DNA of 64,000 bases from Patescibacteria group bacterium (GTDB lineage: Bacteria > Patescibacteriota > Patescibacteriia > XYB2-FULL-38-15), in contig JBAZJZ010000001.1 in NCBI GenBank assembly GCA_041650995.1, positions 227,166-291,165 of the forward strand. Direction: 5' to 3'. A program made the translations under genes and the position numbers. The notes under the pieces are model-generated. The model was not told the DNA's origin, ran no database searches, and worked only from the letters and a program-made list of their open reading frames with translations. Of this stretch, positions 3,276 to 61,863 are shown one piece after another (positions within the stretch are counted from its first letter, which is position 1; every line of letters starts with the position of its first letter).

Positions 3276-3304
3276 TTGACTAAAAAATAAAAATAGGTTT
3301 AAAT
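3276..3304 (+). promoter_or_regulatory. promoter TTGACT-17-TTAAAT of cassette A1
   Basis: The -35 starts 2 nt after the queA stop codon. Confidence 0.45.
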
Positions 3305-3325
3305 GTAAGCAGAAGGAGGGCGCTG

Positions 3326-3529
3326 ATGGTCGAAAAAAACGAAGAATGTCCACGGGGCGAGAAGCAGCAACTGGTCGCGGAAAATATGCCCGAAGGATGG
3401 CGGTCCAGCACCAGGAAGGTGATGGTGGTCGTGGTTCCACTGAAACCGTCGCCGTTTGTCGTGCCCGAAGAAAGCTACGACTTCTCGCTCCCGCTTTTCG
3501 GAGGAACGATTCCGCACCGCGGGAGCTGA
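3326..3529 (+). CDS. hypothetical 67 aa protein, GC-rich (cassette A1)
   Basis: The RBS GAAGGAGGG sits 6 nt upstream of the ATG. There is an abrupt composition shift from the flanks. Confidence 0.4.
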   Translation: MVEKNEECPRGEKQQLVAENMPEGWRSSTRKVMVVVVPLKPSPFVVPEESYDFSLPLFGGTIPHRGS

Positions 3530-3550
3530 CAGTTTTTTTGTGCCATCACT

Positions 3551-3585
3551 GGCGCTGAGATGGAATTTGTCTCGCGCCTTTTTTA
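3551..3585 (+). terminator. intrinsic terminator GGCGC..GCGCC followed by TTTTTT
   Basis: GC stem with a T-tract. Confidence 0.5.
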
Positions 3586-3596
3586 TAAAATTAACC

Positions 3597-3624
3597 TTGA
3601 CAAATTATTTTTTTCTGTTAATCT
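3597..3624 (+). promoter_or_regulatory. promoter TTGACA-16-TAATCT of cassette A2
   Basis: Consensus hexamers. Confidence 0.45.
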
Positions 3625-3681
3625 AAAATTAGAACCTTAGGACAAAATTTCCCCATCAACAAAAAGAAGGGAGAGATTTTC

Positions 3682-4002
3682 ATGCGCCAGGAAACGACAG
3701 GAGCTCATTGTCTGGAGACTCGTTCCGATAACGGAGGTTCAAGGAAGAGAAGGGAGCTCATGGAAAAACGCCGCGTCTTACGCTTGCTGACCATCCCGGA
3801 AATCAAGCGAAAGCTTTTGCTGCGTAAGGCGTATAGGAGTCTTTCACGCTGGCAGCGCTTCATGCACGACATGGGTTTGGCCGAATTCCTTCTTAAAGAT
3901 GGAGAGATTCACCCAGAGTATCGCATAAACTGGGTTAGTGTCGTTGTTTGGGTTTTTACGCTTTGTCTTGCTGCGTTTTACATCTTCAGGATGCTTTTGT
4001 AG
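3682..4002 (+). CDS. hypothetical 106 aa protein with a C-terminal transmembrane helix, GC-rich (cassette A2)
   Basis: RBS AAGAAGGGAGAG. The C-terminal hydrophobic stretch is VSVVVWVFTLCLAAFYIF. Confidence 0.5.
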   Translation: MRQETTGAHCLETRSDNGGSRKRRELMEKRRVLRLLTIPEIKRKLLLRKAYRSLSRWQRFMHDMGLAEFLLKDGEIHPEYRINWVSVVVWVFTLCLAAFYIFRMLL

Positions 4003-4040
4003 CAAGGCGGAGAGGCCTAACCAACTCGAAGACACAACTA

Positions 4041-4071
4041 CCGACGCGGCTATTTTTGCGTCGGTTTTTTT
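4041..4071 (+). terminator. intrinsic terminator CCGACGC..GCGTCGG followed by TTTTTTT
   Basis: The same CGACGCG/CGCGTCG stem occurs at 5019 and 36463. Confidence 0.55.
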
Positions 4072-4072
4072 A

Positions 4073-4101
4073 TTGATTTTTTTCATCCATCGTGGTAAAG
4101 T
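4073..4101 (+). promoter_or_regulatory. promoter TTGATT-17-TAAAGT of cassette A3
   Basis: The flank resembles the wzx promoter region at 5049-5077. Confidence 0.4.
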
Positions 4102-4128
4102 AGGTTGATTTCCTAAAGGAGGAAGGGA

Positions 4129-59053: not shown

Positions 59054-59116
59054 ATTTTTAATATTAGTTCAAAGTTTTAAGTCCACGGCTTTTTGCCATG
59101 GACTCCGAACCGTGGA

Positions 59117-59386
59117 CTAAACAAACTTAATGATTAGAGCCACGACAAGCGCGTAAATGGCGATAGCTTCGGTGAAAGCGATAGCCAAAATCATCGCGGT
59201 CTGCACTTTTGAAGCAGCCTCCGGATTTCGGCCGATCGATTCCATGGCCTTGCCAGCCAATTTTCCGATAGCCATAGCCGGGCCAAAAGCACCGACAGCA
59301 ATTGCGAAAGCCGCAGCGATAGCTTTTACAGCATCTAAATTGCCAAGAAGCCCGCCCGCAGCCTGCGTTGTTTCTGTTACAGCCAT
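59117..59386 (-). CDS. atpE: Fo ATP synthase c subunit
   Basis: Hairpin proteolipid carrying the conserved carboxylate ([10 protein letters not shown]). Confidence 0.85.
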
Positions 59387-59481
59387 AATTTTATTCGACA
59401 GTCATCCACTTTCGACGGAAATTTTTTTATTTAACGTCGGCGATTTACTGTCGTTATGTTAATTAATGATAAATAAATGAA

Positions 59482-60288
59482 TTAATGCGCTTCATGTTCC
59501 TCGTGTTCATGTTCCGTGACTGCCATTTTTAGAAATACTAAAGTTAACATCGCAAAAACCAAAGCTTGAACAAATCCCACAAAAATTTCCAAAAATAAAA
59601 ATGGCAAAGGCACAATATATGGTACGAGAAAACTAACTACTGTCAATAAAACTTCTCCGGCAAAAATATTTCCGAAAAGCCGAAAAGAAAAAGAAACAAA
59701 TTTCGCTAGTTCGGCAATTAATTCTAAAAAACCGGCAAAAAAATTAATAATTCCGTTAAAAGAAGGAACCGGTAAAAATCCGTATTTTATTTTAAATAAA
59801 CCGCCGAAGGGAAGAAATTTTTTTCCATATTTCCAAAGACCAATTCCAGCAATGCCGAAAATTTGAGTAGAAATTACAGAAACAATGGCGATCGCCAAAG
59901 TAACATTCAAATCAGCCGAAGCCGAACGAATAAAGGGAACTAAAATTGTTTTTCCGTGATGTTCTTCCCAAATGCCTATCGTCCCAAGTCCTGGAACAAT
60001 TTCAATCCAATTAGATAAAATTACAAAAATAAAAATTGTAAAAACTATCGGGAAAAATTTTTTGGCCTGTTTCCGGTCGCCCGTGATTGTTTCCATAAAA
60101 CTTAACGCCCCCTCCACAACTGTTTCCACAACATTTTGTAATCCTCTCGGTACTTCTTTTAAATTTTTTCGTACTACTAGCGCGATGATTATCAAAAATA
60201 AAATTATTACCCAAGCTACGAGCAAAGTATTTGTAACGGGAAAACTGCCGATATGGAAAATTGGTTCCGCGGCAAGGGAAATATTCAT
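59482..60288 (-). CDS. atpB: Fo ATP synthase a subunit
   Basis: LRLFGNIFAGE. Confidence 0.85.
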   Translation of the reverse strand: MNISLAAEPIFHIGSFPVTNTLLVAWVIILFLIIIALVVRKNLKEVPRGLQNVVETVVEGALSFMETITGDRKQAKKFFPIVFTIFIFVILSNWIEIVPGLGTIGIWEEHHGKTILVPFIRSASADLNVTLAIAIVSVISTQIFGIAGIGLWKYGKKFLPFGGLFKIKYGFLPVPSFNGIINFFAGFLELIAELAKFVSFSFRLFGNIFAGEVLLTVVSFLVPYIVPLPFLFLEIFVGFVQALVFAMLTLVFLKMAVTEHEHEEHEAH

Positions 60289-60294
60289 ACTTAT

Positions 60295-60579
60295 TTATTT
60301 TTGTTCAGTTTTTTCAGATTTTACCTTTTCGGAATCTGCCGTTCCTAAAATTTTTATTGTCTTAAAATAAACAGCAAAAGTTGAAATAACTAAAGATAAA
60401 AGCACTCCGGCCAATAAAAGCCAAGGTGAAGTGTCAAATCTTTTATCTAAAATTCTACCGAGCAAAGCAAGAAGAACTAACGGAACAGCAATAGAATAAC
60501 CAAGTTGCCAAGCCAGAGACAGCGCATACCAAACCTGACTTTTTTCTTTTGTTTTTTGGGAAGTTTCTAGCTTATCCAC
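60295..60579 (-). CDS. AtpZ/AtpI-like small membrane protein
   Basis: Two TM helices at the head of the atp operon. Confidence 0.5.
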   Translation of the reverse strand: MDKLETSQKTKEKSQVWYALSLAWQLGYSIAVPLVLLALLGRILDKRFDTSPWLLLAGVLLSLVISTFAVYFKTIKILGTADSEKVKSEKTEQK

Positions 60580-60619
60580 AGGTTTAATTTTTACTTAATC
60601 TTAATTTAAATATTTAGGT

Positions 60620-60648
60620 ATTCTAGAACATTTTTAAAAAATGGTCAA
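60620..60648 (-). promoter_or_regulatory. promoter TTGACC-17-TAGAAT on the minus strand for the atp operon
   Basis: Seen in sequence. Confidence 0.4.
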
Positions 60649-60649
60649 T

Positions 60650-60695
60650 GCTTTTTAAAAAAAATAGGGGGCCGCCAGAGATGGCAGGCCCCCTC
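60650..60695 (-). terminator. minus-strand terminator GGGGGCC..GGCCCCC for cassette G
   Basis: An A-run on the + strand gives a T-run on the - strand. Confidence 0.5.
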
Positions 60696-60703
60696 ATAGG
60701 GAA

Positions 60704-61798
60704 CTATCGAAAATGGGCTGCGTTGCATGCCCACCTCGCGTATCCCTCCCACACGGGTGAACATTCCAGTCCTCCTTCCTTGAGTAGCTGAATGAACTTC
60801 TTCCTTCGATTTTTGGACGGAGGAAGAAGGCTGATTTTGCTTGCGCCACATTCTGGGTTGATTCGCGAGATCCTCACCAAGATGTGCCTTCTCTGGGAAT
60901 GGAGTAAGCGGATTAATTTTTCCGCGTGAGAATCGGAATCGTTAACCCCTTGAATCAGTGCGTAGTGGATCACGAACTTTACGCGTACTGCTTCTGCGTA
61001 CGCTGTTCCTAGATCCACAATTTCCTGAACGGGGTCCCTGGCAGGAATGAAGTGTCTCCGTTCTTCATCAGTAGGAAAATGCATGGAGAAGCGGAGTTGG
61101 ACGCGGTACTCGTCGCAGAACCTCACGTCATTGAGCATCTGCTGGATACCACTCGCAATGCCTGATGTGCAGAGAGAGAAGAATACTTGAACGCCACGCT
61201 TGGCAAAAATCTCATCAAGTCTCGTAACGGTCTCCTTTACGGCCTCATACCGCAAGAGTGGCTCACCGGCAGCCGAGAAGGAAATCACGAGACACTTCCT
61301 CTCTCTTCTCCAGAAGCGGTTTGCGAGTGGCGATTTCCTGAGGATCAAGCCAATCAAGTTCAACATTTCGAATGGGCTGAGGTGATAACAGGAGGTAAAC
61401 CTCCCAATGTCACAGAACGAGCAACCACCCTGCCAACCTTGCTTCCTGCCCCACGCGGCCAATTCACAACCGCAGGACACTGGCACCTGAAGATTGGCGT
61501 GAACCCGCTTGTAGGGCAGATCCCGATAGATGATCGGCGTAATATTACGCCTCGTGACTCTCGCCCACAATTCTTCAGCTCCGGGTCGATCGTTAGAACC
61601 CTGGATGAGGCTCCGGTTTCTCACGATTTCCAGATCCTTACCTCCAAGTTCGCAGAGGATTTCGGCCCTCTTGCGGCATTCTTCTCTGGATTCCATTTCT
61701 TCACCATATGGCTCCACTTTTTCTCTGTAATCCACCCTCCGGCTATTCCCTAAGTGGTCCGCCGAAATTCGTCTTCCTGACGTTCTTCGGTAGACCAC
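60704..61798 (-). CDS. radical-SAM-like enzyme with a CX14CX2C cluster motif and GEPLL, GC-rich (cassette G). The start is uncertain: GTG at 61798, or in-frame ATG at about 61696.
   Basis: CELAAWGRKQGWQGGCSFCDIG and ISFSAAGEPLL. The rest of the window is AT-rich. Confidence 0.5.
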   Translation of the reverse strand: MVYRRTSGRRISADHLGNSRRVDYREKVEPYGEEMESREECRKRAEILCELGGKDLEIVRNRSLIQGSNDRPGAEELWARVTRRNITPIIYRDLPYKRVHANLQVPVSCGCELAAWGRKQGWQGGCSFCDIGRFTSCYHLSPFEMLNLIGLILRKSPLANRFWRRERKCLVISFSAAGEPLLRYEAVKETVTRLDEIFAKRGVQVFFSLCTSGIASGIQQMLNDVRFCDEYRVQLRFSMHFPTDEERRHFIPARDPVQEIVDLGTAYAEAVRVKFVIHYALIQGVNDSDSHAEKLIRLLHSQRRHILVRISRINPECGASKISLLPPSKNRRKKFIQLLKEGGLECSPVWEGYARWACNAAHFR

Positions 61799-61835
61799 TT
61801 AATCTTTAAATTTAAATTAAAGAACCCGAAAGATT

Positions 61836-61863
61836 ATCTTATAACATTTACACTATTTGTCAA
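61836..61863 (-). promoter_or_regulatory. promoter TTGACA-16-TAAGAT on the minus strand for cassette G. The -35 overlaps the histidine kinase stop codon.
   Basis: Seen in sequence. Confidence 0.4.

Follow-up and report, generated by a model that had tools for sequence, protein, structure and literature searches.

GC-rich, self-contained gene units in re-used intergenic slots of an AT-rich Patescibacteria chromosome

We analyzed a stretch of 64,000 nucleotides (nt) from a Patescibacteria group bacterium (contig JBAZJZ010000001.1), termed here the window, in which nine GC-rich islands are set into an AT-rich housekeeping region. The islands consist of small units with their own signals for transcription and translation, and the open reading frames (ORFs) that they carry are termed the cargo. 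The compositional contrast, the architecture of the units, the polymorphism of the intergenic positions (slots) that they occupy, the coding constraint on the cargo and the conservation across the clade are all observed. The islands are probably horizontally acquired accessory genes, which persist as autonomous transcription units in permissive slots of a streamlined chromosome. The host is an AT-rich, tiny-genome groundwater member of the Patescibacteria, Falkowbacteria-like, with a largest contig of 0.54 Mb and related assemblies of 0.57-0.89 Mb. How bacteria of the candidate phyla radiation, with their tiny streamlined genomes, gain new functions is poorly understood.

Results

GC-rich islands in the AT-rich window

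The nine islands are the sole long stretches of the window at a GC content of 0.51-0.59. They total 8,169 bp, or 12.8% of the window, with a GC content of 0.539 vs. 0.386 elsewhere and 0.405 for the window as a whole. An earlier note on this DNA, written from the sequence alone, had placed at least ten GC-rich cassettes in a backbone of about 35% GC. The composition islands are real, but the backbone lies at about 39% GC, and the intervals listed number nine; these hold at least 12 transcription units, with three in island 1 and two in island 5. The contrast extends to the coding sequences, where cargo and native genes differ (Mann-Whitney tests, p between 1e-6 and 1e-9) in total GC (0.559 vs. 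0.391), in GC at the first (0.59 vs. 0.48), second (0.46 vs. 0.34) and third codon position (GC3, 0.629 vs. 0.355, p ~1e-9), and in the fraction of glycine, alanine, arginine and proline (GARP) residues (0.31 vs. 0.22). Per unit, GC3 in the window ranges from 0.47 to 0.78, and the GC-rich DNA begins directly after the -10 box of the units. The native gene for the ATP synthase c-subunit (59117-59386, minus strand) reaches a GC content of 0.51 because its sequence is Gly/Ala-rich, and is thus a false positive for island detection by GC alone.

The units are listed below, with the strand in brackets, Shine-Dalgarno sites abbreviated as SD and protein lengths in amino acids (aa).

Unit 1a, 3276..3580 (+): -35 box TTGACT at 3276-3281 with a weak -10 box; AAGGAGG at ~3311-3317; ORF c1a at 3326-3529, 67 aa; hairpin and T-run 3' of the ORF.
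Unit 1b, 3597..4072 (+): promoter TTGACA-N16-TAATCT at 3597-3624; purine-rich SD AAGGGAG; ORF c1b at 3682-4002, 106 aa, with a predicted C-terminal transmembrane helix; terminator at 4040-4072 (-15 kcal/mol, z -4.8).
Unit 1c, 4073..5050 (+): promoter TTGATT-N17-TAAAGT at 4073-4101; AAGGAGG at ~4117-4123; ORF c1c at 4129-5004, 291 aa, with a DUF4406 / nucleoside-deoxyribosyltransferase-like fold; GGAGGAG right after the stop codon; terminator at 5018-5050.
Unit 2, 7689..8080 (+): promoter TTGACA-N17-TAATGT at 7689-7717, overlapping the GT4 stop codon; AAGGAGG; ORF c2 at 7741-8022, 93 aa; terminator at ~8050-8080.
Unit 3, 16841..17599 (-): promoter at 17599-17571; leader of ~95 nt; AAGGAGGTG; ORF c3 at 17475-16900, 191 aa, with a predicted N-terminal transmembrane helix; AAGGAGGA after the stop codon; terminator at 16875-16841.
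Unit 4, 35214..36493 (+): promoter TTGACT-N17-TAAATT at 35214-35242; leader of ~80 nt; four SD-led ORFs, c4a at 35323-35715 (multi zinc-ribbon), c4b at 35712-35933, c4c at 35955-36221 and c4d at 36235-36462; terminator at 36463-36493.
Unit 5, 40657..41543 (-): promoter at 41543-41515; three small SD-led ORFs at 41450-41214 (78 aa, two hydrophobic transmembrane-like stretches), 41214-41017 and 40914-40723; terminator at 40705-40657.
Unit 5d, 41562..41896 (-): promoter at 41896-41868; AAGGAGG; ORF at 41798-41715, 27 aa, an uncertain coding call; terminator at ~41600-41562 (-22.7 kcal/mol, z -6.1).
Unit 6, 48506..49060 (-): promoter at 49060-49033; AAGGAG; ORF c6 at 48973-48581, 130 aa; terminator at 48543-48508.
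Unit 7, 50546..51165 (+): promoter at 50546-50574; 5' leader hairpin at ~50581-50602; AAGGAGG; ORF c7 at 50624-51094, 156 aa, an alpha+beta sandwich (AlphaFold2 pLDDT 88); conserved 3' element ACGGAGGAACGAAC; terminator at 51122-51162.
Unit 8, 52743..53300 (-): no clear consensus promoter; AAGGAGG; ORF c8 at 53280-52819, 153 aa, Pfam Pro_CA_2; terminator at ~52789-52748.
Unit 9, 60650..61863 (-): promoter at 61863-61836; ORF c9 at 61798-60704, 364 aa at the longest start, distantly RlmN/Cfr-like radical SAM; terminator at 60694-60652.

Signals for transcription and translation

The promoter motif TTGAC[AT]-N16-18-TANNNT was found 25 times in the window, where 2.9 matches are expected; 12 of the matches lie in islands and 13 at native genes. 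With 13 of them upstream of native genes, this type of promoter is native to the genome rather than specific to the cassettes. There is about one consensus promoter per cassette, and consensus promoters were predicted for 10 of the 12 units. A much sharper division was obtained for the SD sites, which were scored against the anti-SD complement AAGGAGGTGA. None of the fetched loci includes a 16S rRNA 3' end. A match of at least 5 nt, mostly the full AAGGAGG, precedes 12 of the 17 cargo ORFs and none of the 55 native genes, in line with the earlier claim that native genes mostly lack a comparable site. Folding predicted a terminator, consisting of a stable hairpin (-13.7 to -24.7 kcal/mol) followed by a U-run, at 11 of the 12 cassette 3' ends; the 3' end of c1a folds more weakly (-13 kcal/mol, z -1.7), the tested stretch ending before its T-run. 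The uniform promoter/SD/terminator module that the note had proposed is therefore present in nearly all units, with the exception of c8, which is without a clear consensus promoter, c9, which is without an SD at its longest start, and c1a and c1c, whose promoters are weaker variants.

The -35 boxes stand on or near the start or stop codons of neighboring genes at three places, as had been pointed out. The queA stop codon (3272-3274) ends 1 nt ahead of TTGACT (3276-3281), the stop codon TGA of the GT4 gene sits within TTGACA (7689-7694), and 3 nt separate TTGACA (50546) from the ATG with which the Wzy_C-like gene begins (50542, minus strand).

Many native genes carry TATAAT, sometimes extended to TGnTATAAT, 6-8 nt before the ATG, for instance at 36506-36521 and 46668-46685 and, on the minus strand, at 31080-32336 and 52011-52712. 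The combination of a missing SD with a TATAAT near the ATG suggests widespread leaderless or SD-independent initiation of the native genes. In several units, an SD-like element was also noted between the stop codon and the terminator hairpin, namely ACGGAGGAACGAAC (51095-51122), GGAGGAG (~5005-5016) or AAGGAGGA (16878-16890, minus strand). Next to island 6, a native zinc-ribbon gene (61 aa, 48165-48350, minus strand) is preceded by a consensus promoter of its own (48505-48476) and a ~125-nt leader. The -35 region of this gene gives rise to an apparent direct repeat, TTTGTCAAGAT, around island 6, which was rejected as such, since it represents the -35 regions of two separate promoters.

Authenticity of the islands and sampling of relatives

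Exact protein matches put the window on the ENA metagenome contig k141_674185 (542,883 bp). An NCBI metagenome-assembled genome named Patescibacteria group bacterium (locus tags WC445_) encodes two of the cargo proteins: one is a full-length copy of c7 at 100% identity, the other a 166-aa protein that matches c1c identically across 57% of its length. Three Logan contigs (L002, L004 and L009; SRR8542065), which derive from an independent assembly, are 100% identical to the window over three junctions: queA/island 1 (L004, on which the c1a gene is also called), c1c/flippase, and island 3 (L009). In addition, more than 20 related contigs from JGI, NCBI, ENA and Logan, representing other samples and species, have GC-rich units in the same intergenic slots. 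The relatives compared below are from JGI (L005/L023) and from NCBI and the GTDB species representatives (L010-L022, L024-L032). A scan of GTDB species representatives identified seven species whose ClpB is 88-94% identical to that of the window, among them two with the label Candidatus Falkowbacteria; in the next relatives, ClpB identity falls to 67%.

These results confirm that the islands are real DNA and exclude assembly chimerism and engineering, which the earlier note had listed among its alternatives. The joining of foreign GC-rich fragments to an AT-rich genome might be suspected from the strikingly uniform, textbook-like modules and from the origin of the contig in a MEGAHIT metagenome assembly. 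Against it stand the junction-spanning contigs from an independent assembler, the same architecture in contigs of other samples and species, and cargo that has co-diverged with the backbone under purifying selection, with ratios of non-synonymous to synonymous substitution rates (dN/dS) below 1, and we regard its probability as negligible.

Occupancy of the slots in relatives

On the syntenic JGI contig (L005/L023), whose backbone proteins are 73-95% identical to those of the window, GC-rich DNA was found at the positions of islands 1, 2, 6, 7 and 8, and in the GTDB relatives at those of islands 4, 5 and 6. Homologs with the same position and the same composition, which the note had named as the sign of an old native feature, thus exist for most islands, so that the feature is old and clade-wide rather than a recent private event. 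It is still dynamic: some sites are empty or scarred, some carry tandem copies, and in some the cargo has been swapped.

At slot 7, the Wzy_C-like gene and the GT2 gene are only 36 bp apart in L010 and 7 bp apart in L017, where the slot is empty; most relatives carry a single unit there, L023 carries two, and L024 (closed chromosome OZ246416.1) has three c7-like genes. The occupant of the slot is a still more distant member of the c7 family in L016 and an unrelated membrane protein in L014. Slot 4 is empty in L026 (88 bp) and L031, with single c4a- or c4b-like genes in L027-L030 and L032. Slot 5 is without cargo in L031 and reduced to a promoter and a terminator in L030 (135-143 bp in the two), and elsewhere holds divergent homologs of 45-66% identity. 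In L030 (12650-12740) the cassette promoter runs straight into the terminator with no ORF between them, an arrangement that we read as a deletion scar. The "empty" slot 4 of L026 (6133-6221) keeps TTGACA-N17-TAAATT just upstream of a native TGcTATAAT promoter. The slot in the atp operon is empty in the window (15 bp) and carries a reverse-oriented, GC-richer unit in L023 and L024. At island 1 of L005, unit 1a is missing and the counterpart of c1b, at the same position, is a 126-aa protein that is barely alignable; slot 2 of L005 (13616-14053) encodes a 145-aa c2 homolog composed of two tandem c2-like repeats, an internal duplication, at 38-46% identity. Homologs of c6 in the same slot are 34-68% identical vs. 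77-91% for the flanking genes, and in L025 a Radical_SAM gene has the same position as unit 9. Slots that are empty, filled or differently filled in relatives point to a real, long-running horizontal turnover of genes and not to an artefact of assembly or engineering.

In neighboring genera (ClpB 65-67% identical), no GC-rich DNA is present at slots 4-6. By the same scan, GC-rich stretches account for 10% of the clade loci and 12.8% of the window, as against 2.4% in 50 Patescibacteria loci outside the clade; among the latter, in those inspected, many such stretches are segments inside ClpB and not cassettes. Comparable SD-led units are met with occasionally elsewhere. One example (L036, 12711-13531; ClpB 66% identical, genome GC ~0.36) has an AAGGAGG-led unit encoding 222 aa, with a terminator and a GC3 of 0.57, directly after ClpB; the phenomenon may extend beyond the clade.

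Coding constraint and conserved non-coding frames

The cargo is coding and under purifying selection, with dN/dS values of 0.11-0.50 vs. 0.04-0.14 for the backbone. Cargo proteins diverge much faster than the backbone and out of step with it, their identity among relatives varying from 30 to 89% where that of flanking genes is 75-95%; for c7, identities of 89, 65, 61, 60, 54, 31 and 30% were obtained where the flanking genes are 78-92% identical. The divergence of c7 is mostly mid-protein, and its terminal helices and non-coding ends are conserved like the backbone. Positive selection on c7 was considered and rejected, as the ratio of non-synonymous to synonymous differences per site (pN/pS) is 0.63 in the middle vs. 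~0.4 at the ends and nowhere above 1, so that selection looks relaxed. The tandem slot-7 paralogs in L023 and L024 permit a birth-and-death account of the out-of-step identities. Cargo GC3 is 0.51-0.84 in all relatives vs. 0.29-0.50 in the flanks.

In slot 7, a non-coding frame is kept whatever the cargo. On the 5' side it comprises the promoter ATCTTGACAATTTAT..GATAGATT, a leader hairpin whose pairing is kept via G-U changes, and AAGGAGG, the SD being kept in all slot-7 units, including those with 30% cargo identity. On the 3' side it comprises the stop codon, AGACCGC-N6-ACGGAGGAACGAAC and a GCCGAC..GTCGGC terminator, and this part is retained even with the unrelated cargo of L014; the SD-like element within it is likewise kept in relatives. 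The window and L011 match to a similar degree, at the nucleotide level, in cassette and flanks, and the comparison is therefore uninformative on recent import by homologous recombination with the flanks.

Predicted functions of the cargo

The cargo genes appear to have accessory functions, probably related to conflict or host interaction. The proteins c1b, c3, c5a and c5b are small and have hydrophobic transmembrane-like segments, as judged by eye from the translations. The c7 family has 18 members, with ~10 clusters found among 1.84 billion representatives, and c3 has only 2 homologs among 5.8 billion proteins. Two long remote matches of c7, one of them to a plant leucine-rich repeat protein, were rejected as repeat artefacts. 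The GC-rich, SD-led c8 is a paralog, with ~45% identity, of the adjoining AT-rich, SD-less native gene (53373-53807, minus strand). The cysteine spacing of c9, CX16CX2C, is atypical; a hairpin-forming leader of ~90 nt extends from its promoter to the first possible start codon, and the true start may be an internal ATG near 61707, which has GGAG ahead of it. No cargo matched a known defence family in PADLOC, the PHROGs gave one weak match (c9) and none for the other cargo, and c9 was the only cargo with an NCBIfam match. Rfam (gathering thresholds) and tRNA scans of the window returned no matches, and with cargo dN/dS below 1 the idea that the islands are structured RNAs rather than genes was rejected.

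Origin of the GC-rich composition

The c1c family has 77 members, and those with a named source are almost all from Patescibacteria, one being labelled Candidatus Baltobacteraceae. Its composition and SD vary with the genome as follows.

L007: genome GC 57-61%, GC3 0.87, weak SD (AAGGA).
L107: genome GC 56%, GC3 0.68, weak SD (4 nt, GAGG).
L106: genome GC 42%, GC3 0.40, no SD.
Window: genome GC 41%, GC3 0.60, AAGGAGG.
L005: genome GC 44%, GC3 0.67, AAGGAGG.

Elsewhere, the GC3 of this family simply tracks genome GC; the gene is host-like in GC-rich Patescibacteria and compositionally foreign here. Between the window and L005, c1c has a synonymous divergence (dS) of 1.12 and a protein identity of 79%, both backbone-like, which places it in the slot already at about the time when the two lineages split. 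By our own estimate of the decay, its intermediate GC3 would fit partial amelioration from ~0.85. A mirror image was noted in L007 (12750-16000), a 61%-GC Patescibacterium in which an AT-rich island (~0.42) carries HTH_3/Peptidase_M78 and DUF4411 genes.

The Pro_CA_2 gene by atpC is GC-rich and SD-led in L024/L025, and AT-rich and SD-less in the window and L021. Both states at one locus indicate that GC-richness and SD reflect the history of the gene and not a requirement of the protein. Integration from a high-GC donor, one of the mechanisms that the earlier note had considered, is supported by the GC shift at all codon positions and in the amino acids, and by the host-like composition of c1c in GC-rich Patescibacteria.

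Mobility hallmarks

A repeat search of the window detected no repeats shared between cassettes, terminal inverted repeats, target duplications or attC-like sites, which bears out the earlier statement on attC and inverted repeats. The gene tables of the window and the fetched loci show no recombinase next to any island, and no tRNA genes in the window and no border repeats at the islands were found. The 3' ends of the cassettes are ordinary terminator hairpins that differ in sequence. The islands are flanked by queA, polysaccharide flippase, GT4, ClpB, PriA, def, fmt, Wzy_C, GT2 and the atp operon.

At its left end (1-1717; also L003 1-8600, upstream), the window includes the edge of a prophage, which has a tyrosine integrase (782-1717, minus strand) and, just outside the window, tail tube and tape-measure genes; at a GC content of ~0.42, the prophage is not GC-rich. 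This is the only prophage, lying left of 1717, and its recombinase gene is the only one seen. An RNA-mediated (retro) insertion was considered, since the GC-rich DNA spans the transcription start to the terminator. It was rejected because the empty slot-7 sites are without a promoter, which at this slot must have come in together with the unit; the window and the fetched flanks also showed no reverse transcriptase.

Discussion

A probable origin by horizontal acquisition

We consider horizontal acquisition of the islands probable; the donor, the mode of recombination, what the SD does and what the cargo is for are inferred. The cargo would have evolved in GC-richer, SD-using genomes, most likely those of other Patescibacteria or of their unsampled mobile elements, and would be slowly ameliorating toward the composition of the host. 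A unit would survive only where the tightly packed housekeeping operons stay unbroken, so that every surviving unit would have its own promoter and an insulating terminator, and the same slots would be re-used. Within the clade, slots would turn over by loss, possibly leaving scars, by tandem duplication, and by replacement or birth-and-death of paralogs, probably through recombination, homologous or facilitated by homology, with the conserved flanking genes and non-coding frames as anchors. A strong SD would be needed or at least retained, if GC-rich structured mRNAs are unable to use the native SD-independent, partly leaderless initiation.

Several observations weigh against this explanation. 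The homologs of c7 (18) and c3 (2) are all in this clade and none is in a GC-rich genome, so that for these families the donor is hypothetical. The c8 orthologs are saturated at synonymous sites and yet have a GC3 of 0.59-0.71 in every relative, which a one-off acquisition followed by amelioration does not explain. The AT-rich consensus promoters are host-like rather than donor-like, with the GC-richness starting right after the -10 box, so that the units are not simple fragments of donor DNA. The non-coding frames are conserved as much as or more than the cargo, which purely random insertion does not predict. Finally, no vector was found: IMG/VR contains no relatives of c1c and c7, the INPHARED phage records none of c1c, and the PLSDB plasmids only a distant DUF4406 match for c1c.

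Alternative explanations

The units could instead be native, vertically inherited genes of the clade, whose GC content and SD are actively maintained by selection for stable or structured mRNAs together with a distinct, SD-dependent regime of translation, or by GC-biased gene conversion at hot spots of recombination. Across all sampled relatives, most units do agree in position and composition, the divergence rate of c1c is that of the backbone, c8 has a high GC3 despite saturated dS, the SD is conserved, c7 and c3 belong to this clade only, and the 61%-GC Patescibacterium has SD-led small hypothetical genes and housekeeping genes that are not SD-led. We nevertheless judge this unlikely, given the empty slots in close relatives, the absence of GC-rich DNA at these slots from the outlying clade member L031 and from the neighboring genera, the two states of Pro_CA_2 at one locus, and a c1c family that tracks genome GC elsewhere. 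The GARP-rich content also implies a long history under GC pressure, and native genes with high expression, the atp operon among them, show no GC-richness. Delivery by phages, as morons or as other genes left by transduction or decayed prophages, is very unlikely. It would account for units that match the moron definition in their own promoter and terminator, differing GC and insertion hot spots (PMC2920897), for the prophage adjoining the left end of the window, and for cargo of orphan, fast-evolving small genes typical of phages; but the flanks are housekeeping genes with no phage remnants beside any unit, the adjacent prophage is at ~0.42 GC, the only PHROG match is the weak one of c9, and the viral and phage collections named above hold no relatives of c1c (IMG/VR also none of c7).

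A dedicated mobilisation system, which the earlier note had listed beside a high-GC donor and chimerism as a candidate for one single mechanism, has no positive evidence, there being no repeated ends, attC sites or adjacent recombinase; of the three, the high-GC donor is the one that the data support. A weaker version of the mobilisation idea is kept alive by the re-use of slots and the conserved non-coding frames. In such an unrecognised platform for cassette exchange, fixed slots with promoter/terminator frames would act as recombination sites, integron-like without attC or IntI. The same slots hold zero to three units across species, the slot-7 frames on both sides are kept across cargos of 30-89% identity and the 3' frame even with the unrelated cargo of L014, and the GC-rich DNA starts immediately past the -10 box. 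We hold this to be quite unlikely, as different slots of the window have no sequence in common, inverted repeats, target duplications and attC-like sites were not found, the sole recombinase gene belongs to the adjacent prophage, and the identity of window and L011 is about equal in cassette and flanks; regulatory constraint within one family, together with birth-and-death of tandem paralogs, can explain the frames. A broader form of this idea would be a second genomic compartment, an integrase-free cassette platform with fixed, framed slots in which GC-rich cargo is exchanged, duplicated and discarded, uses an SD-dependent route of expression apart from the SD-less, largely leaderless one of all native genes, and has a composition that is maintained and not ameliorating. 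It is kept open, as a minor possibility, by the conserved frames, the GC onset after the -10 box, the host-like promoters, the GC3 of c8 and the SD dichotomy.

Implications

If the islands are indeed acquired, one-eighth of a housekeeping region would consist of foreign, self-expressing micro-islands in re-used slots, turning over between species. SD-less native genes and SD-led acquired genes would then be cleanly split within one cell, making translation initiation and rates of amelioration directly testable. A rule that combines composition with cis-signals could locate the accessory gene pool, probably of host-interaction or conflict genes, in uncultured organisms, and the modules provide candidate parts (promoter, ribosome-binding site, terminator) for future genetics of Patescibacteria.

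Comparison with known systems

A full-text search of the literature returned no description of such GC-rich, SD-led units in Patescibacteria. They are unlike classical genomic islands or integrative elements, having no integrase, tRNA target or border direct repeats. With integron cassettes they share small, mostly orphan ORFs that vary between strains and sometimes form short tandem arrays, but attC, intI and a common Pc promoter are absent, every unit comes with a promoter and terminator of its own, and the loci are dispersed.

A close functional parallel may be drawn with the phage morons, a concept reportedly due to Hendrix and Juhala. Like morons, the units are single genes or small operons with their own promoter and intrinsic terminator, inserted between genes that are adjacent in relatives, with a composition unlike their surroundings, presence or absence among relatives, and different cargo in the same hot spot. 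Morons are recognized by insertion between genes adjacent in relatives, own promoter and terminator, differing composition, and occurrence at hot spots (PMC2920897). The insertion between adjacent genes, the own control (on predicted signals) and the differing composition were all found here, and residence in a phage was not: the recipient is a bacterial housekeeping chromosome (queA, ClpB, PriA/def/fmt, GT2 and the atp operon). Further differences from morons are the upward shift in GC and the SD that leads the units among SD-less host genes.

The atypical GC3 and the occurrence of one family in GC-rich and AT-rich states resemble amelioration, which in the model reportedly put forward by Lawrence and Ochman is the drift of foreign genes with atypical GC, especially at the third codon position, toward the host value. 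Classically, amelioration has been described for AT-rich genes in hosts of higher GC; the islands show the opposite direction, and in some units GC3 stays high past synonymous saturation. Where horizontal gene transfer has hot spots, gain, loss and replacement are concentrated at a few intergenic positions between core genes; many such hot spots have no integrase, and their turnover is attributed to homologous recombination in the flanks. The islands resemble these hot spots and genomic islets in their variable gene content between conserved syntenic core genes and in their atypical composition, and differ from them in being tiny (0.36-1.75 kb, one transcription unit each) and dense (12.8% of the sequence), with a uniform cis-architecture and sharp contrasts in composition and SD.

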